Below, one piece after another: positions 21,294-48,703 of a DNA stretch of 64,000 bases (positions within the stretch are counted from its first letter, which is position 1; the number at the start of each line of letters is the position of its first letter). Source of the stretch: Schmidtea polychroa (taxonomy: Eukaryota); contig CM097885.1 of NCBI GenBank assembly GCA_044892525.1, forward strand, positions 124,001-188,000, in the 5' to 3' direction. The position numbers were made by a program, and so were the translations under genes. The notes below the pieces were generated by a model that did no database searches, was not told where the DNA came from, and saw nothing but the letters and a program-made list of their open reading frames with translations.

Positions 21294-24200
21294 TCGAGTA
21301 AAGAGCTAAGCTGGGTAAAGTTCTACCTCAAGTGAATAGCTAAGTCAAGTAAATGGCTTCTTCGAATTAATGGCTAACCTTGGTAAAATTCTACCTCAAG
21401 TAAATGGCTAAGTCAATTATATAGTTACATCAGATAAATGGCTAACTCGAGTAAATAGCACACCGTGAAATTAGCTGCCACGTATCAAGTACATGGCTTC
21501 TTCAATTAAAAGGTTACCTCGATTAATTTGGCTCACTTGGGTAAAATTCTACCTCGATGGGAACGGCTCAGTCAAATAATGGTTCACTTAAGCAAATGAC
21601 TACTTTGTGTAGTTGACTTCCACGAATAAAAGTCTACATCAAGTGAATGGCTACATCAGATGAATGGCTACACAGAGTGCATGGCTAACTCGTTTAAATG
21701 ACTAGCTTAAGGAAATGACTACTTCATGTAAATGACTAAATCAGATAAATCAGATAAATCTTCGAATAAATGGCTATCTGGAGTAAATATTTGTATTTGT
21801 CGAGAAATGAATAATTTATTATTAACTTCATCAATCAATACACACACAATAACAACTTATTTTATATGATTCATATCAATAATGGCCTAGTGGTAATAGC
21901 AAACGCTTGCAATGCCAAAAACAATAGGTTCAAAACACATTTCAGACAATTTTTTTTAAAGTTCCTTTTTAATAAAATTTGATCAGCATCCTCGATTTAG
22001 TACTTGTACAAAATTTAAAGGTAATTGGTCAACGGCATTTCTTAGAAATTTAAGATCAAGATATTTTAACTTGAGCTACCAATGTACATGAGATAATTTA
22101 ATTAATTTCAAATTATACATTTAACAAATTTGCTAATAACTTTTACAATATTAATTGTTCCAAATTAAAAAAGATATCAATAAATAGATAATTAAATTTA
22201 CAATATAAATTATATCAATTTTGTAAAATAGTGTCAGATTTGAAAATTGGTAACTCTATAATAAAGCTACCTAGATTAAAATTCTGTCTTAGGTGAGTGA
22301 CAAAGTCAAGTAAATGACTAGCTCGAGTAAATGACTAGCTCGAGTAAATGACTACCTCGAGTAAATGACAACCGAGAGTAAGTGGCTACCTCGAGTAAAT
22401 TAGTACACCGAGTGAATGGCTTACTAGTGTAATTAGCTGCCTCAAATAAATAGCTATATCGTGTAATTGGCTACCACATGTAAAGCCTAGGTCAAGTACA
22501 TGGCGACTACAAGTAAATGGTTACTTCGAGTAAAGAGCTAAGCTGGGTAAAGTTCTACCTCAAGTGAATAGCTAAGTCAAGTAAATGGCTTCTTCGAATT
22601 AATGGCTAACCTTGGTAAAATTCTACCTCAAGTAAATGGCTAAGTCAATTATATAGTTACATCAGATAAATGGCTAACTCGAGTAAATAGCACACCGTGA
22701 AATTAGCTGCCACGTATCAAGTACATGGCTTCTTCAATTAAAAGGTTACCTCGATTAATTTGGCTCACTTGGGTAAAATTCTACCTCGATGGGAACGGCT
22801 CAGTCAAATAATGGTTCACTTAAGCAAATGACTACTTCGTATAGTTGAATTCCACGAATAAAAGTCTACATCAAGTAAATGGCTACATCAGATGAATGGC
22901 TACACAGAGTGAATGGCTAACCCGTTTAAATGACTAGCTTAAGGAAATGACTACTTCATGTAAATGACTAAATCAGATAAAAGGCTTCTTCAAGTAAATG
23001 GCTACTTCAAGTAAAGGGTTACCTCGAATAAATGGCTATCTGGAGTAAATATTTGTATTTGTCGAGAAATGAATAATTTATTATTAACTTCATCAATCAA
23101 TACACACACAATAACAACTTATTTTATATGATTCATATCAATAATGGCCTAGTGGTAATAGCAAACGCTTGCAATGCTAAAAACAATAGGTTCAAAACGC
23201 ATTTCAGACAATTTTTTTTAAAGTTCCTTTTTAATAAAATTTGATCAGCATCCTCGATTTAGTACTTGTACAAAATTTAAAGGTAATTGGTCAACGGCAT
23301 TTCTTAGAAATTTAAGATCAAGATATTTTAACTTGAGCTACCAATGTACATGAGATAATTTAATTAATTTCAAATTATACATTTAACAAATTTGCTAATA
23401 ACTTTTACAATATTAATTGTTCCAAATTAAAAAAGATATCAATAAATAGATAATTAAATTTACAATATAAATTATATCAATTTTGTAAAATAGTGTCAGA
23501 TTTGAAAATTGGTAACTCTATAATAAAGCTACCTAGATTAAAATTCTGTCTTAGGTGAGTGACAAAGTCAAGTAAATGACTACTTCGAGTAAATGACTAC
23601 CTCGAGTAAATGACAACCGAGAGTAAGTGGCTACCTCGAGTAAATTAGTACACCGAGTGAATGGCTTACTAGTGTAATTAGCTGCCTCAAATAAATAGCT
23701 ATATCGTGTAATTGGCTACCACATGTAAAGCCTAGGTCAAGTACATGGCGACTACAAGTAAATGGTTACTTCGAGTAAAGAGCTAAGCTGGGTAAAGTTC
23801 TACCTCAAGTGAATAGCTAAGTCAAGTAAATGGCTTCTTCGAATTAATGGCTAACCTTGGTAAAATTCTACCTCAAGTAAATGGCTAAGTCAATTATATA
23901 GTTACATCAGATAAATGGCTAACTCGAGTAAATAGCACACCGTGAAATTAGCTGCCACGTATCAAGTACATGGCTTCTTCAATTAAAAGGTTACTTCGAT
24001 TAATTTGGCTCACTTGGGTAAAATTCTACCTCGATGGGAACGGCTCAGTCAAATAATGGTTCACTTAAGCAAATGACTACTTCGTTTAGTTGAATTCCAC
24101 GAATAAAAGTCTACATCAAGTAAATGGCTACATCAGATGAATGGCTACACAGAGTGAATGGCTAACCCGTTTAAATGACTAGCTTAAGGAAATGACTACT

Positions 24201-27200
24201 TCATGTAAATGACTAAATCAGATAAAAGGCTTCTTCAAGTAAATGGCTACTTCAAGTAAAGGGTTACCTCGAATAAATGGCTATCTGGAGTAAATATTTG
24301 TATTTGTCGAGAAATGAATAATTTATTATTAACTTCATCAATCAATACACACACAATAACAACTTATTTTATATGATTCATATCAATAATGGCCTAGTGG
24401 TAATAGCAAACGCTTGCAATGCTAAAAACAATAGGTTCAAAACGCATTTCAGACAATTTTTTTTAAAGTTCCTTTTTAATAAAATTTGATCAGCATCCTC
24501 GATTTAGTACTTGTACAAAATTTAAAGGTAATTGGTCAACGGCATTTCTTAGAAATTTAAGATCAAGATATTTTAACTTGAGCTACCAATGTACATGAGA
24601 TAATTTAATTAATTTCAAATTATACATTTAACAAATTTGCTAATAACTTTTACAATATTAATTGTTCCAAATTAAAAAAGATATCAATAAATAGATAATT
24701 AAATTTACAATATAAATTATATCAATTTTGTAAAATAGTGTCAGATTTGAAAATTGGTAACTCTATAATAAAGCTACCTAGATTAAAATTCTGTCTTAGG
24801 TGAGTGACAAAGTCAAGTAAATGACTACTTCGAGTAAATGACTACCTCGAGTAAATGACAACCGAGAGTAAGTGGCTACCTCGAGTAAATTAGTACACCG
24901 AGTGAATGGCTTACTAGTGTAATTAGCTGCCTCAAATAAATAGCTATATCGTGTAATTGGCTACCACATGTAAAGCCTAGGTCAAGTACATGGCGACTAC
25001 AAGTAAATGGTTACTTCGAGTAAAGAGCTAAGCTGGGTAAAGTTCTACCTCAAGTGAATAGCTAAGTCAAGTAAATGGCTTCTTCGAATTAATGGCTAAC
25101 CTTGGTAAAATTCTACCTCAAGTAAATGGCTAAGTCAATTATATAGTTACATCAGATAAATGGCTAACTCGAGTAAATAGCACACCGTGAAATTAGCTGC
25201 CACGTATCAAGTACATGGCTTCTTCAATTAAAAGGTTACTTCGATTAATTTGGCTCACTTGGGTAAAATTCTACCTCGATGGGAACGGCTCAGTCAAATA
25301 ATGGTTCACTTAAGCAAATGACTACTTCGTTTAGTTGAATTCCACGAATAAAAGTCTACATCAAGTAAATGGCTACATCAGATGAATGGCTTCACAGAGT
25401 GAATGGCTAACCCGTTTAAATGACTAGCTTAAGGAAATGACTACTTCATGTAAATGACTAAATCAGATAAAAGGCTTCTTCAAGTAAATGGCTACTTCAA
25501 GTAAAGGGTTACCTCGAATAAATGGCTATCTGGAGTAAATATTTGTATTTGTCGAGAAATGAATAATTTATTATTAACTTCATCAATCAATACACACACA
25601 ATAACAACTTATTTTATATGATTCATATCAATAATGGCCTAGTGGTAATAGCAAACGCTTGCAATGCTAAAAACAATAGGTTCAAAACGCATTTCAGACA
25701 ATTTTTTTTAAAGTTCCTTTTTAATAAAATTTGATCAGCATCCTCGATTTAGTACTTGTACAAAATTTAAAGGTAATTGGTCAACGGCATTTCTTAGAAA
25801 TTTAAGATCAAGATATTTTAACTTGAGCTACCAATGTACATGAGATAATTTAATTAATTTCAAATTATACATTTAACAAATTTGCTAATAACTTTTACAA
25901 TATTAATTGTTCCAAATTAAAAAAGATATCAATAAATAGATAATTAAATTTACAATATAAATTATATCAATTTTGTAAAATAGTGTCAGATTTGAAAATT
26001 GGTAACTCTATAATAAAGCTACCTAGATTAAAATTCTGTCTTAGGTGAGTGACAAAGTCAAGTAAATGACTACTTCGAGTAAATGACTACCTCGAGTAAA
26101 TGACAACCGAGAGTAAGTGGCTACCTCGAGTAAATTAGTACACCGAGTGAATGGCTTACTAGTGTAATTAGCTGCCTCAAATAAATAGCTATATCGTGTA
26201 ATTGGCTACCACATGTAAAGCCTAGGTCAAGTACATGGCGACTACAAGTAAATGGTTACTTCGAGTAAAGAGCTAAGCTGGGTAAAGTTCTACCTCAAGT
26301 GAATAGCTAAGTCAAGTAAATGGCTTCTTCGAATTAATGGCTAACCTTGGTAAAATTCTACCTCAAGTAAATGGCTAAGTCAATTATATAGTTACATCAG
26401 ATAAATGGCTAACTCGAGTAAATAGCACACCGTGAAATTAGCTGCCACGTATCAAGTACATGGCTTCTTCAATTAAAAGGTTACTTCGATTAATTTGGCT
26501 CACTTGGGTAAAATTCTACCTCGATGGGAACGGCTCAGTCAAATAATGGTTCACTTAAGCAAATGACTACTTCGTTTAGTTGAATTCCACGAATAAAAGT
26601 CTACATCAAGTAAATGGCTACATCAGATGAATGGCTACACAGAGTGAATGGCTAACCCGTTTAAATGACTAGCTTAAGGAAATGACTACTTCATGTAAAT
26701 GACTAAATCAGATAAAAGGCTTCTTCAAGTAAATGGCTACTTCAAGTAAAGGGTTACCTCGAATAAATGGCTATCTGGAGTAAATATTTGTATTTGTCGA
26801 GAAATGAATAATTTATTATTAACTTCATCAATCAATACACACACAATAACAACTTATTTTATATGATTCATATCAATAATGGCCTAGTGGTAATAGCAAA
26901 CGCTTGCAATGCTAAAAACAATAGGTTCAAAACGCATTTCAGACAATTTTTTTAAGGTTCTTTTTTAATAAAATTTGATCAGCATCCTCGATTTAGTACT
27001 TGTACAAAATTTAAAGGTAATTGGTCAACGGCATTTCTTAGAAATTTAAGATCAAGATATTTTAACTTGAGCTACCAATGTACATGAGATAATTTAATTA
27101 ATTTCAAATTATACATTTAACAAATTGCTAATAACTTTTACAATATTAATTGTTCCAAATTAAAAAAGATATCAATAAATAGATAATTAAATTTACAATA

Positions 27201-30200
27201 TAAATTATATCAATTTTGTAAAATAGTGTCAGATTTGAAAATTGGTAACTCTATAATAAAGCTACCTAGATTAAAATTCTGTCTTAGGTGAGTGACAAAG
27301 TCAAGTAAATGACTACCTCGAGTAAATGACTACCTCGAGTAAATGACAACCGAGAGTAAGTGGCTACCTCGAGTAAATTAGTACACCGAGTGAATGGCTT
27401 ACTAGTGTAATTAGCTGCCTCAAATAAATAGCTATATCGTGTAATTGGCTACCACATGTAAAGCCTAGGTCAAGTACATGGCTACTACAAGTAAATGGTT
27501 ACTTCGAGTAAAGAGCTAAGCTGGGTAAAATTCTACCTCAAGTGAATAGCTAAGTCAAGTAAATGGCTTCTTCGAATTAATGGCTCACCTTAGTAAAATT
27601 CTACCTCAAGTAAATGGCTAAGTCAATTATATAGTTACATCAGATAAATGGCTAACTCGAGTAAATAGCACACCGTGAAATTAGCTGCCACGTATCAAGT
27701 ACATGGCTTCTTCAATTAAAAGGTTACCTCGATTAATTTGGCTCACTTGGGTAAAATTCTACCTCGATGGGAACGGCTCAGTCAAATAATGGTTCACTTA
27801 AGCAAATGACTACTTCGTTTAGTTGAATTCCACGAATAAAAGTCTACATCAAGTAAATGGCTACATCAGATGAATGGCTACACAGAGTGAATGGCTAACC
27901 CGTTTAAATGACTAGCTTAAGGAAATGACTACTTCATGTAAATGACTAAATCAGATAAAAGGCTTCTTCAAGTAAATGGCTACTTCAAGTAAAGGGTTAC
28001 CTCGAATAAATGGCTATCTGGAGTAAATATTTGTATTTGTCGAGAAATGAATAATTTATTATTAACTTCATCAATCAATACACACACAATAACAACTTAT
28101 TTTATATGATTCATATCAATAATGGCCTAGTGGTAATAGCAAACGCTTGCAATGCTAAAAACAATAGGTTCAAAACGCATTTCAGACAATTTTTTTTAAA
28201 GTTCCTTTTTAATAAAATTTGATCAGCATCCTCGATTTAGTACTTGTACAAAATTTAAAGGTAATTGGTCAACGGCATTTCTTAGAAATTTAAGATCAAG
28301 ATATTTTAACTTGAGCTACCAATGTACATGAGATAATTTAATTAATTTCAAATTATACATTTAACAAATTTGCTAATAACTTTTACAATATTAATTGTTC
28401 CAAATTAAAAAAGATATCAATAAATAGATAATTAAATTTACAATATAAATTATATCAATTTTGTAAAATAGTGTCAGATTTGAAAATTGGTAACTCTATA
28501 ATAAAGCTACCTAGATTAAAATTCTGTCTTAGGTGAGTGACAAAGTCAAGTAAATGACTAGCTCGAGTAAATGACTACCTCGAGTCAATGACAACCGAGA
28601 GTAAGTGGCTACCTCGAGTAAATTAGTACACCGAGTGAATGGCTTACTAGTGTAATTAGCTGCCTCAAATAAATAGCTATATCGTGTAATTGGCTACCAC
28701 ATGTAAAGCCTAGGTCAAGTACATGGCTACTACAAGTAAATGATTACCTCGAGTAAAGAGATAAGCTGGGTAAAGTTCTACCTCAAGTGAATAGCTAAGT
28801 CAAGTAAATGGCTTCTTCGAATTAATGGCTAACCTTGGTAAAATTCTACCTCAAGTAAATGGCTAAGTCAATTATATAGTTACATCAGATAAATGGCTAA
28901 CTCGAGTAAATAGCACACCGTGAAATTAGCTGCCACGTATCAAGTAAATGGCTTCTTCAATTAAAAGGTTACCTCGATTAATTTGGCTCACTTGGGTAAA
29001 TTTCTACCTCGATGAGAACGGCTCAGTCAAATAATGGCTCACTTAAGCAATTGACTACTTCGTGTAGTTGACTTCCACGAATAAAAGTCTACATCAAGTA
29101 AATGGCTACATCAGATGAATGGCTACACAGAGTGAATGGCTAACCCGTTTAAATGACTATCTTAAGGAAATGACTACTTCATGTAAATGACTAAATCAGA
29201 TAAAAGGCTTCTTCAAGTAAATGGCTACTTCAAGTAAAGGGTTACCTCGAATAAATGGCTATCTGGAGTAAATATTTGTATTTGTCGAGAAATGAATAAT
29301 TTATTATTAACTTCATCAATCAATACACACACAATAACAACTTATTTTATATGATTCATATCAATAATGGCCTAGTGGTAATAGCAAACGCTTGCAATGC
29401 TAAAAACAATAGGTTCAAAACGCATTTCAGACAATTTTTTTTAAAGTTCCTTTTTAATAAAATTTGATCAGCATCCTCGATTTAGTACTTGTACAAAATT
29501 TAAAGGTAATTGGTCAACGGCATTTCTTAGAAATTTAAGATCAAGATATTTTAACTTGAGCTACCAATGTACATGAGATAATTTAATTAATTTCAAATTA
29601 TACATTTAACAAATTTGCTAATAACTTTTACAATATTAATTGTTCCAAATTAAAAAAGATATCAATAAATAGATAATTAAATTTACAATATAAATTATAT
29701 CAATTTTGTAAAATAGTGTCAGATTTGAAAATTGGTAACTCTATAATAAAGCTACCTAGATTAAAATTCTGTCTTAGGTGAGTGACAAAGTCAAGTAAAT
29801 GACTACTTCGAGTAAATGACTACCTCGAGTAAATGACAACCGAGAGTAAGTGGCTACCTCGAGTAAATTAGTACACCGAGTGAATGGCTTACTAGTGTTA
29901 TTAGCTGCCTCAAATAAATAGCTATATCGTGTAATTGGCTACCACATGTAAAGCCTAGGTCAAGTACATGGCTACTACAAGTAAATGGTTGCCTCGAGTA
30001 AAGAGCTAAGCTGGGTAAAGTTCTACCTCAAGTGAATAGCTAAGTCAAGTAAATGGCTTCTTCGAATTAATGGCTAACCTTGGTAAAATTCTACCTCAAG
30101 TAAATGGCTAAGTCAATTATATAGTTACATCAGATAAATGGCTAACTCGAGTAAAAAGCACACCGTGAAATTAGCTGCCACGTATCAAGTACATGGCTTC

Positions 30201-33200
30201 TTCAATTAAAAGGTTACCTCGATTAATTTGGCTCACTTGGGTAAAATTCTACCTCGATGGGAACGGCTCAGTCAAATAATGGTTCACTTAAGCAAATGAC
30301 TACTTCGTATAGTTGAATTCCACGAATAAAAGTCTACATCAAGTAAATGGCTACATCAGATGAATGGCTACACAGAGTGAATGGCTAACCCGTTTAAATG
30401 ACTAGCTTAAGGAAATGACTACTTCATGTAAATGACTAAATCAGATAAAAGGCTTCTTCAAGTAAATGGCTACTTCAAGTAAAGGGTTACCTCGAATAAA
30501 TGGCTATCTGGAGTAAATATTTGTATTTGTCGAGAAATGAATAATTTATTATTAACTTCATCAATCAATACACACACAATAACAACTTATTTTATATTAT
30601 TCATATCAATAATGGCCTAGTGGTAATAGCAATCGCTTGCAATGCCAAAAACAATAGGTTCAAAACGCATTTCAGACAATTTGTTTAAAGTTCTTTTTTA
30701 AGAAAATTTGATCAGCATCCTCGATTTAGTACTTGTACAAAATTTAAAGGTAATTGGTCAACGGCATTTCTTAGAAATTTAAGATCAAGATATTTTAACT
30801 TGAGCTACCAATGTACATGAGATAATTTAATTAATTTCAAATTATACATTTAACAAATTTGCTAATAACTTTTACAATATTAATTGTTCCAAATTAAAAA
30901 AGATATCAATAAATAGATAATTAAATTTACAATATAAATTATATCAATTTTGTAAAATAGTGTCAGATTTGAAAATTGGTAACTCTATAATAAAGCTACC
31001 TAGATTAAAATTCTGTCTTAGGTGAGTGACAAAGTCAAGTAAATGACTAGCTCGAGTAAATGACTACCTCGAGTCAATGACAACCGAGAGTAAGTGGCTA
31101 CCTCGAGTAAATTAGTACACCGAGTGAATGGCTTACTAGTGTAATTAGCTGCCTCAAATAAATAGCTATATCGTGTAATTGGCTACCACATGTAAAGCCT
31201 AGGTCAAGTACATGGCTACTACAAGTAAATGATTACCTCGAGTAAAGAGATAAGCTGGGTAAAGTTCTACCTCAAGTGAATAGCTAAGTCAAGTAAATGG
31301 CTTCTTCGATTTAATGGCTAACCTTGGTAAAATTCTACCTCAAGTAAATGGCTAAGTCAATTATATAGTTACATCAGATAAATGGCTAACTCGAGTAAAT
31401 AGCACACCGTGAAATTAGCTGCCACGTATCAAGTACATGGCTTCTTCAATTAAAAGGTTACCTCGATTAATTTGGCTCACTTGGGTAAATTTCTACCTCG
31501 ATGAGAACGGCTCAGTCAAATAATGGCTCACTTAAGCAATTGACTACTTCGTGTAGTTGACTTCCACGAATAAAAGTCTACATCAAGTAAATGGCTACAT
31601 CAGATGAATGGCTACACAGAGTGAATGGCTAACCCGTTTAAATGACTATCTTAAGGAAATGACTACTTCATGTAAATGACTAAATCAGATAAAAGGCTTC
31701 TTCAAGTAAATGGCTACTTCAAGTAAAGGGTTACCTCGAATAAATGGCTATCTGGAGTAAATATTTGTATTTGTCGAGAAATGAATAATTTATTATTAAC
31801 TTCATCAATCAATACACACACAATAACAACTTATTTTATATGATTCATATCAATAATGGTCTAGTGGTAATAGCAAACGCTTGCAATGCCAAAAACAATA
31901 GTTTCAAAACGCATTTCAGACAATTTTTTTAAGGTTCTTTTTTAAGAAAATTTGATCAGCATCCTCGATTTAGTACTTGTACAAAATTTAAAGGTAATTG
32001 GTCAACGGCATTTCTTAGAAATTTAAGATCAAGATATTTTAACTTGAGCTACCAATGTACATGAGATAATTTAATTAATTTCAAATTATACATTTAACAA
32101 ATTTGCTAATAACTTTTACAATATTAATTGTTCTAAATTAAAAAAGATATCAATAAATAGATAATTAAATTTACAATGCAAATTATATCAATTTTGTAAA
32201 GTAGTGTCAGATTTGAAAATTGGTAACTCTATAATAAAGCTATTTAGATTAAAATTCTGTCTTAGGTGAGTGACAAAGTCAAGTAAATGACTAGATCGAG
32301 TAAATGACTACCTCGAGTAAATGACAACCGAGAGTAAGTGGCTACCTCGAGTAAATTAGTACACCGAGTGAATGGCTTACTAGTGTAATTAGCTGCCTCA
32401 AATAAATAGCTATATCGTGTAATTGGCTACCACATGTAAAGCCTAGGTCAAGTACATGGCTACTACAAGTAAATGGTTACCTCGAGTAAAGAGCTAAGCT
32501 GGGTAAAGTTCTACCTCAAGTGAATAGCTAAGTCAAGTAAATGGCTTCTTCGAATTAATGGCTAACCTTGGTAAAATTCTACCTCAAGTAAATGGCTAAG
32601 TCAATTATATAGTTACATCAGATAAATGGCTAACTCGAGTAAATAGCACACCGTGAAATTAGCTGCCACGTATCAAGTACATGGCTTCTTCAATTAAAAG
32701 GTTACCTCGATTAATTTGGCTCACTTGGGTAAAATTCTACCTCGATGGGAACGGCTCAGTCAAATAATGGTTCACTTAAGCAAATGACTACTTCGTATAG
32801 TTGAATTCCACGAATAAAAGTCTACATCAAGTAAATGGCTACATCAGATGAATGGCTACACAGAGTGAATGGCTAACCCGTTTAAATGACTAGCTTAAGG
32901 AAATGACTACTTCATGTAAATGACTAAATCAGATAAAAGGCTTCTTCAAGTAAATGGCTACTTCAAGTAAAGGGTTACCTCGAATAAATGGCTATCTGGA
33001 GTAAATATTTGTATTTGTCGAGAAATGAATAATTTATTATTAACTTCATCAATCAATACACACACAATAACAACTTATTTTATATGATTCATATCAATAA
33101 TGGCCTAGTGGTAATAGCAAACGCTTGCAATGCTAAAAACAATAGGTTCAAAACGCATTTCAGACAATTTTTTTTAAAGTTCCTTTTTAATAAAATTTGA

Positions 33201-36200
33201 TCAGCATCCTCGATTTAGTACTTGTACAAAATTTAAAGGTAATTGGTCAACGGCATTTCTTAGAAATTTAAGATCAAGATATTTTAACTTGAGCTACCAA
33301 TGTACATGAGATAATTTAATTAATTTCAAATTATACATTTAACAAATTTGCTAATAACTTTTACAATATTAATTGTTCCAAATTAAAAAAGATATCAATA
33401 AATAGATAATTAAATTTACAATATAAATTATATCAATTTTGTAAAATAGTGTCAGATTTGAAAATTGGTAACTCTATAATAAAGCTACCTAGATTAAAAT
33501 TCTGTCTTAGGTGAGTGACAAAGTCAAGTAAATGACTACCTCGAGTAAATGACTACCTCGAGTAAATGACAACCGAGAGTAAGTGGCTACCTCGAGTAAA
33601 TTAGTACACCGAGTGAATGGCTTACTAGTGTAATTAGCTGCCTCAAATAAATAGCTATATCGTGTAATTGGCTACCACATGTAAAGCCTAGGTCAAGTAC
33701 ATGGCTACTACAAGTAAATGGTTACCTCGAGTAAAGAGCTAAGCTGGGTAAAGTTCTACCTCAAGTGAATAGCTAAGTCAAGTAAATGGCTTCTTCGAAT
33801 TAATGGCTAACATTGGTAAAATTCTACCTCAAGTAAATGGCTAAGTCAATTATATAGTTACATCAGATAAATGGCTAACTCGAGTAAATAGCACACCGTG
33901 AAATTAGCTGCCACGTATCAAGTACATGGCTTCTTCAATTAAAAGGTTACCTCGATTAATTTGGCTCACTTGGGTAAATTTCTACCTCGATGAGAACGGC
34001 TCAGTCAAATAATGGCTCACTTAAGCAATTGACTACTTCGTGTAGTTGACTTCCACGAATTAAAGTCTACATCAAGTAAATGGCTACATCAGATGAATGG
34101 CTACACAGAGTGAATGGCTAACCCGTTTAAATGACTAGCTTAAGGAAATGACTACTTCATGTAAATGACTAAATCAGATAAAAGGCTTCTTCAAGTAAAT
34201 GGCTACTTCAAGAAAAGGGTTACCTCGAATAAATGGCTATCTGGAGTAAATATTTGTATTTGTCGAGAAATGAATAATTTATTATTAACTTCATCAATCA
34301 ATACACACACAATAACAACTTATTTTATATTATTCATATCAATAATGGCCTAGTGGTAATAGCAATCGCTTGCAATGCCAAAAACAATAGGTTCAAAACG
34401 CATTTCAGACAATTTGTTTAAAGTTCTTTTTTAAGAAAATTTGATCAGCATCCTCGATTTAGTACTTGTACAAAATTTAAAGGTAATTGGTCAACGGCAT
34501 TTCTTAGAAATTTAAGATCAAGATATTTTAACTTGAGCTACCAATGTACATGAGATAATTTAATTAATTTCAAATTATACATTTAACAAATTTGCTAATA
34601 ACTTTTACAATATTAATTGTTCCAAATTAAAAAAGATATCAATAAATAGATAATTAAATTTACAATATAAATTATATCAATTTTGTAAAATAGTGTCAGA
34701 TTTGAAAATTGGTAACTCTATAATAAAGCTACCTAGATTAAAATTCTGTCTTAGGTGAGTGACAAAGTCAAGTAAATGACTAGCTCGAGTAAATGACTAC
34801 CTCGAGTCAATGACAACCGAGAGTAAGTGGCTACCTCGAGTAAATTAGTACACCGAGTGAATGGCTTACTAGTGTAATTAGCTGCCTCAAATAAATAGCT
34901 ATATCGTGTAATTGGCTACCACATGTAAAGCCTAGGTCAAGTACATGGCTACTACAAGTAAATGATTACCTCGAGTAAAGAGATAAGCTGGGTAAAGTTC
35001 TACCTCAAGTGAATAGCTAAGTCAAGTAAATGGCTTCTTCGAATTAATGGCTAACCTTGGTAAAATTCTACCTCAAGTAAATGGCTAAGTCAATTATATA
35101 GTTACATCAGATAAATGGCTAACTCGAGTAAATAGCACACCGTGAAATTAGCTGCCACGTATCAAGTACATGGCTTCTTCAATTAAAAGGTTACCTCGAT
35201 TAATTTGGCTCACTTGGGTAAATTTCTACCTCGATGAGAACGGCTCAGTCAAATAATGGCTCACTTAAGCAATTGACTACTTCGTGTAGTTGACTTCCAC
35301 GAATAAAAGTCTACATCAAGTAAATGGCTACATCAGATGAATGGCTACACAGAGTGAATGGCTAACCCGTTTAAATGACTATCTTAAGGAAATGACTACT
35401 TCATGTAAATGACTAAATCAGATAAAAGGCTTCTTCAAGTAAATGGCTACTTCAAGTAAAGGGTTACCTCGAATAAATGGCTATCTGGAGTAAATATTTG
35501 TATTTGTCGAGAAATGAATAATTTATTATTAACTTCATCAATCAATACACACACAATAACAACTTATTTTATATGATTCATATCAATAATGGTCTAGTGG
35601 TAATAGCAAACGCTTGCAATGCCAAAAACAATAGTTTCAAAACGCATTTCAGACAATTTTTTTAAGGTTCTTTTTTAAGAAAATTTGATCAGCATCCTCG
35701 ATTTAGTACTTGTACAAAATTTAAAGGTAATTGGTCAACGGCATTTCTTAGAAATTTAAGATCAAGATATTTTAACTTGAGCTACCAATGTACATGAGAT
35801 AATTTAATTAATTTCAAATTATACATTTAACAAATTTGCTAATAACTTTTACAATATTAATTGTTCTAAATTAAAAAAGATATCAATAAATAGATAATTA
35901 AATTTACAATGCAAATTATATCAATTTTGTAAAGTAGTGTCAGATTTGAAAATTGGTAACTCTATAATAAAGCTATTTAGATTAAAATTCTGTCTTAGGT
36001 GAGTGACAAAGTCAAGTAAATGACTAGATCGAGTAAATGACTACCTCGAGTAAATGACAACCGAGAGTAAGTGGCTACCTCGAGTAAATTAGTACACCGA
36101 GTGAATGGCTTACTAGTGTAATTAGCTGCCTCAAATAAATAGCTATATCGTGTAATTGGCTACCACATGTAAAGCCTAGGTCAAGTACATGGCTACTACA

Positions 36201-39200
36201 AGTAAATGGTTACCTCGAGTAAAGAGCTAAGCTGGGTAAAGTTCTACCTCAAGTGAATAGCTAAGTCAAGTAAATGGCTTCTTCGAATTAATGGCTAACC
36301 TTGGTAAAATTCTACCTCAAGTAAATGGCTAAGTCAATTATATAGTTACATCAGATAAATGGCTAACTCGAGTAAATAGCACACCGTGAAATTAGCTGCC
36401 ACGTATCAAGTACATGGCTTCTTCAATTAAAAGGTTACCTCGATTAATTTGGCTCACTTGGGTAAAATTCTACCTCGATGGGAACGGCTCAGTCAAATAA
36501 TGGTTCACTTAAGCAAATGACTACTTCGTATAGTTGAATTCCACGAATAAAAGTCTACATCAAGTAAATGGCTACATCAGATGAATGGCTACACAGAGTG
36601 AATGGCTAACCCGTTTAAATGACTAGCTTAAGGAAATGACTACTTCATGTAAATGACTAAATCAGATAAAAGGCTTCTTCAAGTAAATGGCTACTTCAAG
36701 TAAAGGGTTACCTCGAATAAATGGCTATCTGGAGTAAATATTTGTATTTGTCGAGAAATGAATAATTTATTATTAACTTCATCAATCAATACACACACAA
36801 TAACAACTTATTTTATATGATTCATATCAATAATGGCCTAGTGGTAATAGCAAACGCTTGCAATGCTAAAAACAATAGGTTCAAAACGCATTTCAGACAA
36901 TTTTTTTTAAAGTTCCTTTTTAATAAAATTTGATCAGCATCCTCGATTTAGTACTTGTACAAAATTTAAAGGTAATTGGTCAACGGCATTTCTTAGAAAT
37001 TTAAGATCAAGATATTTTAACTTGAGCTACCAATGTACATGAGATAATTTAATTAATTTCAAATTATACATTTAACAAATTTGCTAATAACTTTTACAAT
37101 ATTAATTGTTCCAAATTAAAAAAGATATCAATAAATAGATAATTAAATTTACAATATAAATTATATCAATTTTGTAAAATAGTGTCAGATTTGAAAATTG
37201 GTAACTCTATAATAAAGCTACCTAGATTAAAATTCTGTCTTAGGTGAGTGACAAAGTCAAGTAAATGACTACCTCGAGTAAATGACTACCTCGAGTAAAT
37301 GACAACCGAGAGTAAGTGGCTACCTCGAGTAAATTAGTACACCGAGTGAATGGCTTACTAGTGTAATTAGCTGCCTCAAATAAATAGCTATATCGTGTAA
37401 TTGGCTACCACATGTAAAGCCTAGGTCAAGTACATGGCTACTACAAGTAAATGGTTACCTCGAGTAAAGAGCTAAGCTGGGTAAAGTTCTACCTCAAGTG
37501 AATAGCTAAGTCAAGTAAATGGCTTCTTCGAATTAATGGCTAACCTTGGTAAAATTCTACCTCAAGTAAATGGCTAAGTCAATTATATAGTTACATCAGA
37601 TAAATGGCTAACTCGAGTAAATAGCACACCGTGAAATTAGCTGCCACGTATCAAGTACATGGCTTCTTCAATTAAAAGGTTACCTCGATTAATTTGGCTC
37701 ACTTGGGTAAAATTCTACCTCGATGGGAACGGCTCAGTCAAATAATGGTTCACTTAAGCAAATGACTACTTCGTATAGTTGAATTCCACGAATAAAAGTC
37801 TACATCAAGTAAATGGCTACATCAGATGAATGGCTACACAGAGTGAATGGCTAACCCGTTTAAATGACTAGCTTAAGGAAATGACTACTTCATGTAAATG
37901 ACTAAATCAGATAAAAGGCTTCTTCAAGTAAATGGCTACTTCAAGTAAAGGGTTACCTCGAATAAATGGCTATCTGGAGTAAATATTTGTATTTGTCGAG
38001 AAATGAATAATTTATTATTAACTTCATCAATCAATACACACACAATAACAACTTATTTTATATGATTCATATCAATAATGGCCTAGTGGTAATAGCAAAC
38101 GCTTGCAATGCTAAAAACAATAGGTTCAAAACGCATTTCAGACAATTTTTTTTAAAGTTCCTTTTTAATAAAATTTGATCAGCATCCTCGATTTAGTACT
38201 TGTACAAAATTTAAAGGTAATTGGTCAACGGCATTTCTTAGAAATTTAAGATCAAGATATTTTAACTTGAGCTACCAATGTACATGAGATAATTTAATTA
38301 ATTTCAAATTATACATTTAACAAATTTGCTAATAACTTTTACAATATTAATTGTTCCAAATTAAAAAAGATATCAATAAATAGATAATTAAATTTACAAT
38401 ATAAATTATATCAATTTTGTAAAATAGTGTCAGATTTGAAAATTGGTAACTCTATAATAAAGCTACCTAGATTAAAATTCTGTCTTAGGTGAGTGACAAA
38501 GTCAAGTAAATGACTACCTCGAGTAAATGACTACCTCGAGTAAATGACAACCGAGAGTAAGTGGCTACCTCGAGTAAATTAGTACACCGAGTGAATGGCT
38601 TACTAGTGTAATTAGCTGCCTCAAATAAATAGCTATATCGTGTAATTGGCTACCACATGTAAAGCCTAGGTCAAGTACATGGCTACTACAAGTAAATGGT
38701 TACCTCGAGTAAAGAGCTAAGCTGGGTAAAGTTCTACCTCAAGTGAATAGCTAAGTCAAGTAAATGGCTTCTTCGAATTAATGGCTAACATTGGTAAAAT
38801 TCTACCTCAAGTAAATGGCTAAGTCAATTATATAGTTACATCAGATAAATGGCTAACTCGAGTAAATAGCACACCGTGAAATTAGCTGCCACGTATCAAG
38901 TACATGGCTTCTTCAATTAAAAGGTTACCTCGATTAATTTGGCTCACTTGGGTAAATTTCTACCTCGATGAGAACGGCTCAGTCAAATAATGGCTCACTT
39001 AAGCAATTGACTACTTCGTGTAGTTGACTTCCACGAATTAAAGTCTACATCAAGTAAATGGCTACATCAGATGAATGGCTACACAGAGTGAATGGCTAAC
39101 CCGTTTAAATGACTAGCTTAAGGAAATGACTACTTCATGTAAATGACTAAATCAGATAAAAGGCTTCTTCAAGTAAATGGCTACTTCAAGAAAAGGGTTA

Positions 39201-42200
39201 CCTCGAATAAATGGCTATCTGGAGTAAATATTTGTATTTGTCGAGAAATGAATAATTTATTATTAACTTCATCAATCAATACACACACAATAACAACTTA
39301 TTTTATATTATTCATATCAATAATGGCCTAGTGGTAATAGCAATCGCTTGCAATGCCAAAAACAATAGGTTCAAAACGCATTTCAGACAATTTGTTTAAA
39401 GTTCTTTTTTAAGAAAATTTGATCAGCATCCTCGATTTAGTACTTGTACAAAATTTAAAGGTAATTGGTCAACGGCATTTCTTAGAAATTTAAGATCAAG
39501 ATATTTTAACTTGAGCTACCAATGTACATGAGATAATTTAATTAATTTCAAATTATACATTTAACAAATTTGCTAATAACTTTTACAATATTAATTGTTC
39601 CAAATTAAAAAAGATATCAATAAATAGATAATTAAATTTACAATATAAATTATATCAATTTTGTAAAATAGTGTCAGATTTGAAAATTGGTAACTCTATA
39701 ATAAAGCTACCTAGATTAAAATTCTGTCTTAGGTGAGTGACAAAGTCAAGTAAATGACTAGCTCGAGTAAATGACTACCTCGAGTCAATGACAACCGAGA
39801 GTAAGTGGCTACCTCGAGTAAATTAGTACACCGAGTGAATGGCTTACTAGTGTAATTAGCTGCCTCAAATAAATAGCTATATCGTGTAATTGGCTACCAC
39901 ATGTAAAGCCTAGGTCAAGTACATGGCTACTACAAGTAAATGATTACCTCGAGTAAAGAGATAAGCTGGGTAAAGTTCTACCTCAAGTGAATAGCTAAGT
40001 CAAGTAAATGGCTTCTTCGAATTAATGGCTAACCTTGGTAAAATTCTACCTCAAGTAAATGGCTAAGTCAATTATATAGTTACATCAGATAAATGGCTAA
40101 CTCGAGTAAATAGCACACCGTGAAATTAGCTGCCACGTATCAAGTACATGGCTTCTTCAATTAAAAGGTTACCTCGATTAATTTGGCTCACTTGGGTAAA
40201 TTTCTACCTCGATGAGAACGGCTCAGTCAAATAATGGCTCACTTAAGCAATTGACTACTTCGTGTAGTTGACTTCCACGAATGAAAGTCTACATCAAGTA
40301 AATGGCTACATCAGATGAATGGCTACACAGAGTGAATGGCTAACCCGTTTAAATGACTATCTTAAGGAAATGACTACTTCATGTAAATGACTAAATCAGA
40401 TAAAAGGCTTCTTCAAGTAAATGGCTACTTCAAGTAAAGGGTTACCTCGAATAAATGGCTATCTGGAGTAAATATTTGTATTTGTCGAGAAATGAATAAT
40501 TTATTATTAACTTCATCAATCAATACACACACAATAACAACTTATTTTATATGATTCATATCAATAATGGTCTAGTGGTAATAGCAAACGCTTGCAATGC
40601 CAAAAACAATAGTTTCAAAACGCATTTCAGACAATTTTTTTAAGGTTCTTTTTTAAGAAAATTTGATCAGCATCCTCGATTTAGTACTTGTACAAAATTT
40701 AAAGGTAATTGGTCAACGGCATTTCTTAGAAATTTAAGATCAAGATATTTTAACTTGAGCTACCAATGTACATGAGATAATTTAATTAATTTCAAATTAT
40801 ACATTTAACAAATTTGCTAATAACTTTTACAATATTAATTGTTCTAAATTAAAAAAGATATCAATAAATAGATAATTAAATTTACAATGCAAATTATATC
40901 AATTTTGTAAAGTAGTGTCAGATTTGAAAATTGGTAACTCTATAATAAAGCTATTTAGATTAAAATTCTGTCTTAGGTGAGTGACAAAGTCAAGTAAATG
41001 ACTAGATCGAGTAAATGACTACCTCGAGTAAATGACAACCGAGAGTAAGTGGCTACCTCGAGTAAATTAGTACACCGAGTGAATGGCTTACTAGTGTAAT
41101 TAGCTGCCTCAAATAAATAGCTATATCGTGTAATTGGCTACCACATGTAAAGCCTAGGTCAAGTACATGGCTACTACAAGTAAATGGTTACCTCGAGTAA
41201 AGAGCTAAGCTGGGTAAAGTTCTACCTCAAGTGAATAGCTAAGTCAAGTAAATGGCTTCTTCGAATTAATGGCTAACCTTGGTAAAATTCTACCTCAAGT
41301 AAATGGCTAAGTCAATTATATAGTTACATCAGATAAATGGCTAACTCGAGTAAATAGCACACCGTGAAATTAGCTGCCACGTATCAAGTACATGGCTTCT
41401 TCAATTAAAAGGTTACCTCGATTAATTTGGCTCACTTGGGTAAATTTCTACCTCGATGAGAACGGCTCAGTCAAATAATGGCTCACTTAAGCAATTGACT
41501 ACTTCGTGTAGTTGACTTCCACGAATAAAAGTCTACATCAAGTAAATGGCTACATCAGATGAATGGCTACACAGAGTGAATGGCTAACCCGTTTAAATGA
41601 CTAGCTTAAGGAAATGGCTACTTCATGTAAATGACTAAATCAGATAAAAGGCTTCTTCAAGTAAATGGCTACTTCAAGAAAAGGGTTACCTCGAATAAAT
41701 GGCTATCTGGAGTAAATATTTGTATTTGTCGAGAAATGAATAATTTATTATTAACTTCATCAATCAATACACACACAATAACAACTTATTTTATATTATT
41801 CATATCAATAATGGCCTAGTGGTAATAGCAATCGCTTGCAATGCCAAAAACAATAGGTTCAAAACGCATTTCAGACAATTTGTTTAAAGTTCTTTTTTAA
41901 GAAAATTTGATCAGCATCCTCGATTTAGTACTTGTACAAAATTTAAAGGTAATTGGTCAACGGCATTTCTTAGAAATTTAAGATCAAGATATTTTAACTT
42001 GAGCTACCAATGTACATGAGATAATTTAATTAATTTCAAATTATACATTTAACAAATTTGCTAATAACTTTTACAATATTAATTGTTCCAAATTAAAAAA
42101 GATATCAATAAATAGATAATTAAATTTACAATATAAATTATATCAATTTTGTAAAATAGTGTCGGATTTGAAAATTGGTAACTCTATAATAAAGCTACCT

Positions 42201-45200: not shown

Positions 45201-45546
45201 AGTCAAATAATGGTTCACTTAAGCAATTGACTACTTCGTATAGTTGACTTCCACGAATAAAAGTCTACATCAAGTAAATGGCTACATCAGATGAATGGCT
45301 ACACAGAGTGAATGGCTAACCCGTTTAAATGACTAGCTTAAGGAAATGACTACTTCATGTAAATGACTAAATCAGATAAAAGGCTTCTTCAAGTAAATGG
45401 CTACTTCAAGAAAAGGGTTACCTCGAATAAATGGCTATCTGGAGTAAATATTTGTATTTGTCGAGAAATGAATAATTTATTATTAACTTCATCAATCAAT
45501 ACACACAAAATAACAACTTTTTTTATATTATTCATATCAATAATGG
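21294..45546 (+). repeat. Tandem macrosatellite, ~19.5 copies of a ~1244 bp unit (~770 bp of degenerate 17-mers CTCGAGTAAATGGCTAC plus ~470 bp containing a tRNA-like cassette)
   Basis: Period read from recurring ORF starts (41631, 42875, 45363; 34165 to 39143 = 4 units). Copies are near-identical. Confidence 0.97.
21878..21957 (+). ncRNA. tRNA-like Pol III cassette (first copy; one per array unit)
   Basis: A-box TGGCCTAGTGG, B-box-like GGTTCAAAAC and a downstream T-run. No intact cloverleaf. Confidence 0.5.
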
Positions 45547-46848: not shown

Positions 46849-47016
46849 CAAATATTTGTCAAAACTCTTACTGGTAAGACAATTACTCTGGACGTTGAAT
46901 GGAACGACACAATTGAAAAGGTGAAGGGAAATATCCGGGACAGGGAGGGGGTTCCGGTGGATTGTCAGGTGTTGGTGTGCGCAGGGAAGCAGTTAGAAAA
47001 TAAAAGAAGATTGAAT
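46849..47016 (+). pseudogene. Divergent ubiquitin-like domain truncated by the Polinton terminus
   Basis: [50 protein letters not shown] matches ubiquitin residues 2-51; similarity stops at AGTAGT (47017). Confidence 0.85.
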
Positions 47017-47950
47017 AGTAGTGTGTATATATACCCAACCCAAACAGCCCTCCCAACAAAAACATACCTCCATTACGCTTAAACCATTAGAAAAACAACA
47101 TAAAACCTATGTTTTTATAGTATTTTAATCCCATATTTTAAACAACAACCACCCTTAATCTTTAAAGCCTCAAACTCAAAAGCTTAAAACTAAAAAGAGA
47201 ATAGAAAAGAAAATGGCCTTATGAAAAAGTTAGAGGGCTATTTGGGATAGGGCTATATACACACTACTGATCGCAATGAAATTATTATTGATTTTAAATT
47301 ATATAAATTAAAAAATAAATGAAAAATAGTAAAACTGCTCTGAGGGGACAGTGGTATTTTTTTTTTTTTTTTTCACTGTCCCCTCAACAGTTTTTTTGAT
47401 CCGGATCATTTCAACCTCTTTCGTTTATCAAATCTCTTCTAATATACAAGCTGGCCAGACTCATACATCAGAATCAATCCGATAATAGCAGCACGCCTTA
47501 TTATTCGCTTCTCGCTCACGAAGTCGATTTCAACGGCGTTTTAAGCGTGCTGCTCGAAAGTACAAATGAATTCGAAAGCGAATCCGAAAGAGGTCCGAAA
47601 ACAACTGAGAAAGGGATCGATCCGGGGGTGTTCCAAAGACAGGTGGCGATAATTACCGGTTCGCCACCATCACCCGTTTCAATAAATTTTTTTTCATATT
47701 TATGTTTAAAAATAAAATAATAAATAAAATAAATAAAATAAATAAAATAAATAAAATAAAATAAAATAAAATAAAAATAAATAAAATAAAATATAAATCT
47801 AAGATAATCACACTATTATTTTCAAATTTTTAATATTATTTTATGTTGAAAAATAAACTAACCACAGTTAGGATTTGAACCGCTATCCATTTGAACCACG
47901 GTGCCGGTCTAGCCCACTGCGCTATCTAGGATTGGATTTTTGTCATTTTT
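47017..47950 (+). repeat. Left TIR (imperfect)
   Basis: Reverse-complement similarity to ~61390-62360. Confidence 0.88.
47849..47932 (-). ncRNA. Pol III type-2 (tRNA-like) unit in the left TIR
   Basis: A-box TAGCGCAGTGG, B-box GGTTCAAATCC (plus a second GGTTCAAATGG) and a T-rich end. Confidence 0.6.
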
Positions 47951-48649: not shown

Positions 48650-48703
48650 ACATAATATATTTAATTAATCCTATTGTGTGTGTGTAAATTTTAATATATA
48701 AAA

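Follow-up and report, generated by a model that had tools for sequence, protein, structure and literature searches.

The macrosatellite described here carries in each of its units a fragment of the intergenic spacer (IGS) of the ribosomal RNA genes (rDNA). We analyzed a stretch of 64,000 nucleotides of Schmidtea polychroa DNA (C1:124001-188000, referred to below as the window), in which the macrosatellite lies next to a Polinton-like element. The array is probably a satellite that originated from an old IGS fragment, and the Polinton family carries the same block of spacer separately. A preliminary description of this DNA had offered two explanations for the sequence shared by the array and the neighboring Polinton, namely amplification of a Polinton RNA gene or capture of the same small element by both. 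The second is nearly right: the shared sequence belongs to a block of 243-bp sub-repeats in the rDNA IGS, which is located between the 3' end of 28S and the 5' end of 18S.

Structure of the macrosatellite array

The array occupies positions 21294..45546 (plus strand). It consists of 19 full units of ~1245 bp, preceded by an incomplete unit of 407 bp and followed by another of 215 bp. With a whole unit as the query, the units are 98-100% identical between 21294 and 45331. BLASTN of a 600-bp query (21701-22300) against the whole window returned 19 full copies including the query, spaced at ~1245 bp from 21701 to 44088, as well as a further, truncated one at 45332-45546. A genome search with the 290-bp segment defined below likewise recovered these 19 full copies in the array, and the ~19-fold amplification given in the preliminary description is thus confirmed.

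Each unit is a composite in which 456 bp of IGS are joined to ~725 bp of a 17-bp minisatellite unrelated to them. The IGS-derived stretch of the first unit (21793..22248, plus strand) consists of a 290-bp segment (21793..22082, plus strand), homologous to Polinton positions 48495-48214 and to the first 243-bp IGS sub-repeat, and of 166 bp of adjoining unique IGS; its equivalent in unit 2 is found at 23055-23510. The minisatellite part (23540..24177, plus strand) holds ~42 copies of AGTAAATGGCTACCTCG-like units, and this version of the minisatellite is confined to the main array and to an array of 1.8 units at C1:31299-33514. The last IGS-derived segment (45454..45546, plus strand) is truncated, and the array breaks off there at the equivalent of the tRNA-like unit's 5' start. 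Blocks of several units have been duplicated within the array, as non-adjacent units 8/11/15/18, 9/12 and 10/14 differ by only 0-3 positions.

The array is situated in a chromosome-end region, ~130 kb from an rDNA unit (L056, C1:10000-17000), and the tandem amplification of its 19 full units took place outside rRNA gene units. Rfam searches of the 64-kb window detected no rRNA or other family at gathering scores, and no spacer homology was found in the window beyond the array and the module of the Polinton.

The shared segment belongs to the rDNA spacer

Using the 166-bp continuation of the array segment as a query, we found rRNA-bearing loci, with rRNA on either side of the homologous stretch. 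At Rfam gathering scores the 3' end of LSU rRNA was identified at positions 1-847 of locus L047 and 1-1182 of L052, and the 5' start of SSU rRNA at 5500-7000 of L057; the IGS module lies at 3557-4296 in L047 and at 1705-2441 in L057. Since L047 and L057 overlap with 99.8% identity over 5.1 kb, 28S, spacer and 18S are contiguous. The order on the rRNA sense strand is the 28S end, 104-bp repeats, (AAT)n, ~460 bp of unique sequence, the unique 166 bp and the 243-bp sub-repeat block, followed downstream by 148-bp repeats and ~2.4 kb to the start of 18S. Tandem Repeats Finder (TRF) reported 104 bp x 7.9, (AAT)84, 243 bp x 2.3 and 148 bp x 1.8 in L057, and the 243 bp x 2.3 repeat coincides exactly with the module. 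On the antisense strand, each of the 243-bp sub-repeats contains a tRNA-like unit in degenerate form. The rDNA matches recur at a spacing of 13-14 kb on contigs C115, C218, C220, C224, C202, C97 and C21 and at the end of C2; copies thus spaced lie on several unplaced contigs and at chromosome ends. The caveat raised at the outset, that the segment might be a high-copy dispersed repeat with no link to Polintons, was correct in its first half, because rDNA, to which the segment belongs, is a high-copy repeat, and wrong in its second, because the Polinton family carries the segment.

Comparison of array, spacer and Polinton sequences

The preliminary description had noted that 21797-22083 is colinear with the reverse complement of 48214-48492, and our alignment agrees with it to within 4 bases (21793-22082 on the plus strand against 48495-48214 on the minus strand, 80.9% over 293 columns, BLASTN E 2.9e-72). 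The homology of the array to IGS extends further. It is colinear over 456-461 bp (unit at 23055-23510) in 10 loci, L050 included, and covers 204-371 bp in five further truncated IGS fragments; only 290 bp of this stretch are common to the Polinton. The 166-bp part is 92.2-92.8% identical between array and IGS, and none of the 28 Polinton rows of our alignment contains it. Likewise, the 290/166 junction together with the 166 bp is absent from the 8 pure Polinton copies examined and from 19 of the 20 copies in a second sample. All locus counts given here describe the best-scoring copies (the best 40 of 117, 765, 881, 1182 and 2292 first-look candidates in separate searches), not the whole genome. 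Because the array shares 456 bp with IGS, as opposed to 290 bp with Polintons, and because this homology crosses a junction that pure Polintons lack, the array piece was not copied from the neighboring Polinton. That Polinton resembles the array solely because a 479-bp piece of the sub-repeat block is common to the whole of its very abundant family.

Over the 290-bp part the array is 78.6-81.8% identical to Polinton rows and 79.9-81.3% identical to full-length IGS rows. Polinton and IGS rows share a median identity of 97.3% (substitutions only, n=112 pairs), close to the 98.3% found within Polintons. A tree of the 290-bp part (50 rows) places the array clade on a long branch and the first-copy IGS rows in a basal polytomy, and 27 of the 28 Polinton rows, joined by the chimeric locus L050, form one cluster with support 85/93. 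Locus L053, an independent old fragment of IGS, shares three array-type states.

Proposed origin of the array

An older version of the spacer would have yielded a 456-bp fragment comprising the 166 bp and the first 290 bp of the sub-repeat block. This fragment would have become embedded in the 17-bp minisatellite, and the resulting 1245-bp composite would have been amplified ~19-fold via unequal exchange, a mechanism suggested by the block duplications between units. Two observations fit this origin less easily. Adjacent parts of the array diverge unequally from IGS (~81% identity in the 290-bp part vs ~92% in the 166-bp part), which calls for an extra assumption, either faster turnover of the sub-repeats or their later replacement within the rDNA. 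Additionally, the array's IGS homology stops exactly at what would be the outer end of a 2-kb element in the spacer bounded by terminal inverted repeats (TIRs), and this leaves room for a separate mobile element.

Such an element could be a tRNA-headed, SINE-like sequence or a ~2-kb foldback or MITE-like sequence with inverted ends of 125-166 bp, inserted independently in the spacer, in an ancestor of the Polinton and in the minisatellite. The spacer does contain, ~1.9 kb further along, a 125-bp copy of the 166-bp piece in inverted orientation (74.6%), the array homology ends exactly at the outer end of the 166 bp, and a tRNA-like unit with A-box-like and B-box-like motifs could serve as a head. 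Five dispersed fragments also end inside or beside this unit, at the equivalents of 48347-48414. However, all six dispersed non-array fragments examined (L045, L046, L049, L053, L054 and L055) run past the 166-bp end into the unique 460-bp spacer, and they are therefore pieces of spacer rather than copies of a free element. Flanks at the tRNA-side breakpoints are mutually unrelated, and the T8 run directly after the tRNA-like unit would halt a Pol III transcript before any SINE body. We consider a separate element of this kind improbable. A common transposon inserted at the breakpoints was also considered and rejected, as the flanks of the array end and those of five spacer fragments show no relationship.

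The spacer module of the Polinton family

The Polinton-like element (47013..62364, plus strand) is 15.35 kb long, has the termini AGTAGTGTG...CACACTACT and is bounded by long TIRs (~47013-47976 and 61168-62364), with inverted arms (47052-47941 and 61168-62327) that are up to 100% complementary. Its major capsid protein gene (48704..49996, plus strand) contains a double jelly-roll domain (Pfam DJR-like_dom, E 2.4e-26), and further Pfam matches correspond to a retroviral-type integrase (rve, 7.1e-12) and an A32-like packaging ATPase (Pox_A32, 2.7e-9). As regards a protein-primed family B DNA polymerase, the three ORFs on the minus strand between 56806 and 61110 gave no match to any Pfam family at E<=1; language-model features relate one ORF (58024-59040) to arthropod clusters at 0.97, with 38-56% of their members carrying DNA_pol_B_2, which we treat as a lead only. 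A 6-bp target-site duplication was not found at the ends of the element (flanks TTGAAT and CATTAT), and the copy may have been rearranged after insertion. The family is abundant, with at least 1182 first-look candidates.

The IGS-homologous module (48214..48692, plus strand) measures 479 bp, amounts to about two diverged sub-repeat units and ends 12 bp before the ATG of the capsid gene. Its orientation relative to the capsid gene is the same as its orientation relative to the 18S gene in rDNA, and its identity to the present IGS is ~97%. The comparison of sub-repeat units 1 and 2 gives z = 10; the TIR contains a tRNA-like repeat of its own, the similarity of which to unit 1 (z ~4.4) is too weak to call. 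In a sample of 20 stretches of 901 bp upstream of capsid genes that are 99-100% identical, 19 copies contained the module, as did all eight Polinton loci of a separate sample. An 89-aa ORF (47909..48178, minus strand) is predicted between TIR and module; the region 47977-48223 is missing in 7 of the 20 sampled copies, where the TIR (47976) joins the module directly at 48224, at most 10 bp from the limit of IGS homology at 48214. No insertion of the Polinton family into rRNA genes was seen among the sampled loci.

Transfer from IGS to Polinton, by capture or by continuing conversion as in the Pokey transposons of Daphnia, is moderately supported. In the reverse direction, a Polinton fragment would have landed in the spacer, been duplicated into the 243-bp sub-repeats and spread by concerted evolution; the array would be spacer-derived in this case as well. 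The chimeric locus L050 could be read this way, since it joins a Polinton integrase start, capsid gene and module to the 166 bp of IGS and ~310 bp more of spacer. Polinton and IGS modules also fall within each other's range of diversity, and the available text of one report describes rDNA spacers filled with transposon remnants (PMC10319768). Yet with the array as outgroup the first-copy IGS rows are basal and the Polinton rows derived, with moderate support, and the old array and L053 show that the junction of module and 166 bp was already in the spacer when the sequence was ~19% different, while the Polinton has only the modern version. Further evidence comes from short contigs of sequencing runs, which carry little weight: contigs of X1 (kind not on record) and X20 (guessed to be RNA) join the TIR at 47952 to 48697-48700 without the module, and one short X1 contig, equally weak, skips 48206-48685, nearly exactly the module. 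It seems, then, that some Polinton variants lack the module; they are a mirror image of the right arm, in which the TIR lies against the start of a gene. A Polinton origin of the sub-repeats thus appears unlikely to us, although the Polinton cluster reaches only the support given above, the base of the tree is a polytomy and the direction of exchange is not settled.

Degenerate tRNA-like units

The tRNA-like unit is a degenerate relic of a tRNA. Unit 1 of the Polinton (48348..48418, minus strand) scores 26.7 bits against the Rfam tRNA model, short of its gathering score (29), with E 0.0024 in a search of 601 bp and 0.061 in one of 15.4 kb, and is followed by T8. Its anticodon loop, CUGCAUU, makes the earlier label of 'Cys-like' a fair one for the Polinton copy. 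Unit 2 (48573..48648, minus strand) is reported by ARAGORN only at 85% of the default threshold and has no Rfam match. The corresponding sequence in the array (21882..21957, plus strand) is a decayed relic with a T-run; it has no Rfam tRNA match, and no covariance-model match was obtained for the array version even at E<=10 in a 1245-bp search. ARAGORN at default settings predicted no tRNAs in the whole window; the 89 'genes' that it listed at a threshold of 75% were discarded as noise. Only the IGS copies in L043 and L044 reach the gathering score (32.4 bits; Rfam RF00005), and the best of them pairs 5/7 positions in the acceptor stem, 3/4 in the D stem, 2/5 in the anticodon stem and 5/5 in the T stem. 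Judged by RF00005 and by intact cloverleaf stems, neither Polinton nor array copies are tRNA genes.

The Polinton and IGS copies display motifs that resemble the A-box and B-box consensus, together with a T8 run. The T-run is broken in five of the 19 array units and GGTTC is changed to GTTTC in four others, so that the B-box-like motif or the T-run is mutated in 9/19 units. Among 28 Polinton copies there are only 0-5 shared variants per feature, too few to judge selection on the tRNA-like units.

These data bear on the other explanation in the preliminary description, according to which amplification of a subterminal Pol III RNA gene of the Polinton produced a tandem ncRNA locus, the RNAs of which would silence the Polinton or act as decoys against it. 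The homology behind it is real and includes the tRNA-like unit with its A-box-like and B-box-like motifs and T-run. The array also ends ~1.5 kb from the neighboring Polinton, and the second, small array abuts another copy, the terminus of which adjoins the minisatellite directly at C1:33514; chance is not obviously sufficient for two such adjacencies. Nevertheless, the array contains the IGS-specific junction and the 166 bp that Polintons lack, it is equidistant (79-82%) from Polinton and IGS, it yields no tRNA-model match, and its Pol III-type features have decayed in nearly half of the units. Moreover, the longest exact match between array segment and Polinton is 22 nt at an identity of ~81%, and perfectly matching guides longer than 22 nt therefore cannot arise. 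Amplification of a Polinton RNA gene is thus highly improbable, and the array copy, which gives no sign of upkeep as a Pol III gene, would most likely be a neutral satellite derived from the spacer.

Contigs of the sequencing runs X13, X19 and X20 (guessed to be RNA) and of X1 over 44088-50000 lie on the TIR (47256-47651), on 47897-48208 and on the capsid gene. They leave array and module almost uncovered, which is no evidence on expression either way. One X19 contig aligned to 44490-44664 has 14 other letters in 175 and fits the 166-bp copy in rDNA, not the array.

Relation to known systems

Pokey transposons carry IGS-derived repeats of 200 bp that lie upstream of their transposase and evolve in concert with rDNA, according to the available text (PMC3849761). 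The Polinton family resembles Pokey, as described there, in being a DNA transposon family with at least two spacer sub-repeats in non-coding sequence just upstream of a gene, and in that these repeats differ little from the current rDNA spacer, from which a tree does not cleanly separate them. It differs in that the carrier is a Polinton-like, virus-like element with the repeats upstream of a capsid gene. In the literature searched, as far as the texts were available, Pokey was the only comparable transposon with spacer repeats, and no description of tRNA-like units in Polintons or in animal spacers was found (subscription journals lay outside the scope).

Satellites derived from IGS sub-repeats are described in the accessible parts of reports on a tomato IGS-related satellite (PMC2679016) and on As51 in characiform fishes (PMC13170303). 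As in those accounts, a piece of IGS that includes a sub-repeat lies here outside the rRNA genes in a tandem array of its own near rDNA or a chromosome end; in contrast to them, the unit is composite, the IGS version is old (81-92% identical to the present spacer) and the array is small (19 units). Transposon-derived satellites include those related to the foldback element Tetris (PMC4079207) and to the tandem-repeat-containing MITE DTC84 (PMC3879986), again as presented in the text available. Internal tandem repeats of a mobile or repeated element recur in those cases, as they do here, as units of longer arrays, but here they come from the rDNA spacer instead of the adjacent transposon.

Some viruses possess Pol III genes for small RNAs, such as those for the VA RNAs of adenovirus and the tRNA-like/miRNA units at the left end of murid herpesvirus 68. 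The Polinton resembles them in that, close to one end of its virus-like genome, it has tRNA-like units containing internal A-box-like and B-box-like motifs and a T-run. Unlike those genes, the units of the Polinton are spacer-derived and known from sequence alone, unit 1 being below the gathering score and unit 2 without an Rfam match.

Sub-repeats of rDNA spacers act in other animals as Pol I enhancers or spacer promoters. It is conceivable, though we put it forward only tentatively, that an abundant and recently active Polinton family has co-opted rDNA spacer sub-repeats with their antisense tRNA-like A/B-box units and keeps two of them in concert with rDNA, either as regulatory DNA or as homology that ties the element to nucleolar chromatin; the macrosatellite would then be an independent fossil of the same spacer. 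The concerted evolution of the Polinton module with rDNA that this idea presumes is suggested by a single genome.

The appealing yet unsupported story of a decoy locus made from the RNA gene of a virus-like transposon is thus replaced by a documented origin, that of a satellite from an old fragment of rDNA spacer. The array and the dispersed spacer fragments represent dated fossils of a fast-evolving spacer. The more interesting by-product is that present-day spacer sub-repeats stand directly upstream of the capsid gene in a Polinton family for which a first look gave at least about a thousand matches. A second case, unrelated to Pokey, would hint at a benefit that DNA transposons draw from spacer repeats, be it in expression, in residence at the nucleolus or in recombination with rDNA, and it would also offer a tractable system in which to test for such a benefit.

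Homology between the array and the neighboring Polinton-like element

The macrosatellite array (21294..45546) and the Polinton-like element beside it (47013..62364) share a homologous segment. When we searched the window by BLASTN with positions 21701-22300, 21793-22082 (+) aligned with 48495-48214 (-) at 80.9% identity over 293 columns (E 2.9e-72). The match is well above what chance would give, and its ends differ by at most 4 bases from the coordinates in the preliminary description. The ~19 tandem copies claimed there were also recovered: the same query found 19 full copies at a spacing of ~1245 bp, and a truncated copy at 45332-45546. With a whole unit as query (22933-24177), the units from 21701 to 45331 each match at 95.7-100%, and a 407-bp partial unit lies at the left (21294-21700). 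A 17-bp minisatellite makes up ~725 bp of each unit, and other sequence the remaining ~520 bp. In a unit-by-unit difference matrix, units 8, 11, 15 and 18 differ by 0-3 positions, units 2-4 by 0-1, and the pairs 9 and 12 and 10 and 14 by none; we infer recent unequal exchange in blocks of 3-4 units, from which such a pattern is expected. The array shares its version of the minisatellite only with C1:31299-33514 on the same contig; distant relatives (65-74% identity) are located close to rDNA-related loci, at C2:188.03-188.04 Mb and C3:1.12 Mb. The locus C1:31299-33514 (L020, L021, L058) is a second copy of the macrosatellite, with 1.8 units that are 96-97% identical.

The shared segment in the Polinton family

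The Polinton has the termini AGTAGTGTG...CACACTACT at 47013 and 62364 and inverted arms at 47052-47941 and 61168-62327. Pfam identifies a double jelly-roll capsid protein (48704-49996), an rve integrase (50026-51435, +) and an A32-like ATPase (51447-52277, minus). No Pfam match to a family B polymerase was found in its ORFs; the ORF at 58024-59040 (minus) resembles arthropod DNA_pol_B_2 clusters (0.97 on language-model features, a lead only). The flanks of the element form no 6-bp duplication. N-terminal to the rve core, the integrase ORF also encodes a parvovirus-type phospholipase A2-like domain (PF08398, E 4.3e-9, residues 66-147).

When the 781-Mb genome, in which the window corresponds to C1:124001-188000, was searched with the array's 290-bp segment, 117 first-look candidates came up, the best 40 of which were scored. 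Among the matches listed, eight of nine non-array loci are colinear with window 47016-49990 at 93-97% and are thus other Polinton copies; the exception, L025, differs from them. We also searched with the 5' end of the capsid gene (1182 first-look candidates; best 40 scored, 99-100% identical) and compared the 900 bp upstream of the gene with the window for 20 of those 40 copies. Twelve are colinear with the window, seven join the terminal inverted repeat (TIR) at 47976 directly to 48224 and so do not contain the region of an 89-aa ORF, and one is divergent upstream of 48666. The module, a 479-bp block at 48214-48692, is present in 19 of these 20, a best-scoring sample outside which any more diverged subfamilies would fall. 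The 290-bp segment is a regular part of the Polinton family. In contigs from the sequencing runs X1 (kind unrecorded) and X20 (presumed RNA), the TIR runs from 47952 straight into 48697-48700, and one X1 contig skips 48206-48685, which weakly suggests Polinton variants lacking the module.

Match of the shared sequence to the rDNA intergenic spacer

Querying the genome with the 226 bp of array sequence downstream of the segment (23345-23570) yielded 765 first-look candidates, and non-array matches span the first 166 bp of this query at 92-93% identity. We compared 15 loci matching these 166 bp with the array unit and with the Polinton. In ten of them, unit positions 23055-23510 align as one colinear stretch of 456-461 bp and Polinton 48214-48692 aligns at ~93%, starting exactly at the end of the 166 bp; the other five are shorter fragments with the same arrangement. 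The junction between module and 166 bp is common to the array and these loci and was found neither in the window's Polinton nor in any of 28 aligned Polinton copies. The extra 166 bp are not Polinton sequence. The proposal that a Polinton RNA gene was amplified into the array is not supported, because the homology exceeds 290 bp and its junction has no counterpart in those 28 copies.

The loci carrying both the 166 bp and the module are rDNA intergenic spacer. At gathering scores, Rfam places the 3' end of LSU rRNA at 1-847 of L047, 1-1182 of L052 and 6182-7001 (minus) of L056, and the 5' part of SSU rRNA at 5500-7000 of L057. A 5.1-kb overlap between L047 and L057 is 99.8% identical, so the 28S end, the spacer and the 18S start are contiguous. 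Searches over both ends of the shared block (881 and 2292 first-look candidates; best 40 of each scored) gave hits that share sharp boundaries and lie 13-14 kb from one another, both on several unplaced contigs and at the ends of chromosomes. Read along L057 on the rRNA sense strand, the layout is 104-bp repeats (7.9 copies, 1-818), (AAT)84 (840-1091), ~460 bp of unique sequence to 1539, the 166-bp piece (1539-1705), the Polinton-homologous block (1705-2441) with 243-bp sub-repeats (2.3 copies, 1785-2335), 148-bp repeats (1.8 copies, 2785-3057) and the SSU rRNA start (5500). The module has one and the same orientation to the 18S gene and, within the Polinton, to the capsid gene; its tRNA-like unit is antisense to both genes. 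One rDNA unit (L056, C1:10000-17000) lies ~130 kb from the window array and ~14 kb from the 1.8-unit array. Within the window, there is no spacer homology besides the array pieces and the Polinton module, and Rfam found no rRNA gene.

Two rDNA-like units at C2:188.62-188.68 Mb (L043, L044) have a shortened LSU match adjoining non-LTR-retrotransposon-like ORFs, perhaps R-element-type insertions. L044 6870-6931 also matches mir-753 at 74.3 bits (gathering score 62).

The tRNA-like unit

The spacer copies in L043 and L044 match the Rfam tRNA model at 32.4 bits and the window's Polinton copy at 26.7 bits (gathering score 29); the array copy has no match at E<=10. In the best tRNA-like copy, 2 of 5 anticodon-stem and 5 of 7 acceptor-stem positions pair. 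ARAGORN reports no tRNA in the window by default, and at 85% of its default threshold it calls a second unit at 48573-48648 plus two elsewhere in the window. The unit contains A-box-like and B-box-like motifs, accompanied by a T8 run, so the spacer and Polinton copies could conceivably be transcribed by Pol III into a 70-80-nt RNA. The array does not resemble a conserved set of Pol III genes, given its mutated motifs and missing tRNA match: the T-run is interrupted in 5 of 19 units, and in another four the B-box-like GGTTC has become GTTTC and the A-box-like motif is altered as well. With 9/19 units thus altered, the array is not supported as a tandem Pol III ncRNA locus. The segment's longest exact match to the Polinton is 22 nt, so the array could not give perfectly matching guides longer than that against the element.

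Both TIRs (47860-47941, -; 61109-61594, +) also hold an outward-facing stretch in which A-box-like and two B-box-like motifs precede a T-rich run; on the right it lies within a 233-bp tandem repeat (2.1 copies). These stretches have no Rfam tRNA match at E<=5 and no rDNA spacer homology. The left TIR also holds a near-perfect hairpin around an A17 run (47324-47401) with weak miRNA-precursor-like matches (26 bits, E 0.061), and contigs of runs presumed RNA cover 47256-47651.

Sequence around the array and the Polinton

At C1:33514 a Polinton terminus adjoins the small array directly, within the minisatellite; in the window, 1.47 kb of other repeated DNA separates the two. These adjacencies may represent one duplicated event, chance or a preference. 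The Polinton copy that cuts the small array's minisatellite (C1:33512-45000) is 97-98% identical in DNA and 88-100% in protein, and carries an additional ~3.7 kb at its counterpart of 48073-48077. The interval 45547-47012 is a patchwork of GC-rich inverted repeats TCTGTGTGCGC/GCGCACACAGA, a 78-bp tandem repeat (3.1 copies) and a 375-aa ORF that weakly matches the Pfam entries Proteasome and ubiquitin. Just beyond the right end of the Polinton, an ORF with two HMG boxes (62966-63619, +; E 9.5e-28) is probably a host gene. Large mirror-image blocks at 5233-6560 and 12463-13854, each with 205-bp and 21/64-bp tandem repeats, enclose ~6 kb and look foldback-like; pieces of them (5595-5655 and 13432-13492) match L043 6912-6972 at 96.7%.

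Proposed history of the array and direction of transfer

In the simplest history, a spacer fragment would have become embedded in a minisatellite at a chromosome end, with later amplification of the 1245-bp composite. The parts of the fragment diverge unequally from the spacer (~81% vs ~92% identity), a contrast attributed to putative faster turnover of sub-repeats in rDNA. Array homology stops exactly where the 166-bp piece ends on its outer side, and an inverted 125-bp copy of that piece (74.6% identical) occurs 1.9 kb further along the spacer. This arrangement may be the trace of an old TIR-bounded element, but the six dispersed fragments examined all extend beyond that point into unique spacer sequence.

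Counting gaps, the 290-bp part of the array shows 78.6-81.8% identity to Polinton copies and 79.9-81.3% to full-length spacer copies, and the array's 166-bp part shows 92.2-92.8% identity to the spacer. By substitutions only, Polinton and spacer modules have a median identity of 97.3% (112 pairs), compared with 98.3% among Polinton copies and 97.8% among four spacer-type rows. A 50-row tree of the 290-bp part places the three array rows on a long branch and the spacer first-copy rows in a basal polytomy, and groups 27 of 28 Polinton rows with the chimeric L050 (support 85/93). The non-array row closest to the array (83.8%) is L053 (C2:20.99 Mb), an independent dispersed spacer fragment with three array-type states in the tRNA-like stretch. 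Our reading is that the array and L053 would retain an earlier form of the spacer, with the modern form in the Polinton. Either the Polinton would have acquired the block recently from the spacer, or both would keep exchanging it, as has been reported for Pokey and the Daphnia spacer (PMC3849761); transfer may also have run in reverse, from Polinton to spacer. L050 (C3:2380400-2387400) carries a Polinton integrase start, capsid gene and module, followed directly by the spacer 166 bp and ~310 bp more; it either arose by recombination through the shared module or survives from the original transfer.

The reported likeness of array and Polinton has an ordinary explanation. Satellites derived from the spacer are already known (PMC2679016, PMC13170303). 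The literature searched gave no account of spacer sub-repeats upstream of a gene in a Polinton, and none of tRNA-like units in Polintons or animal spacers. Pokey (PMC3849761) is a DNA transposon that carries current spacer sub-repeats upstream of its gene, as the Polinton does here. The link between Polinton and spacer resembles this known case and merits follow-up.
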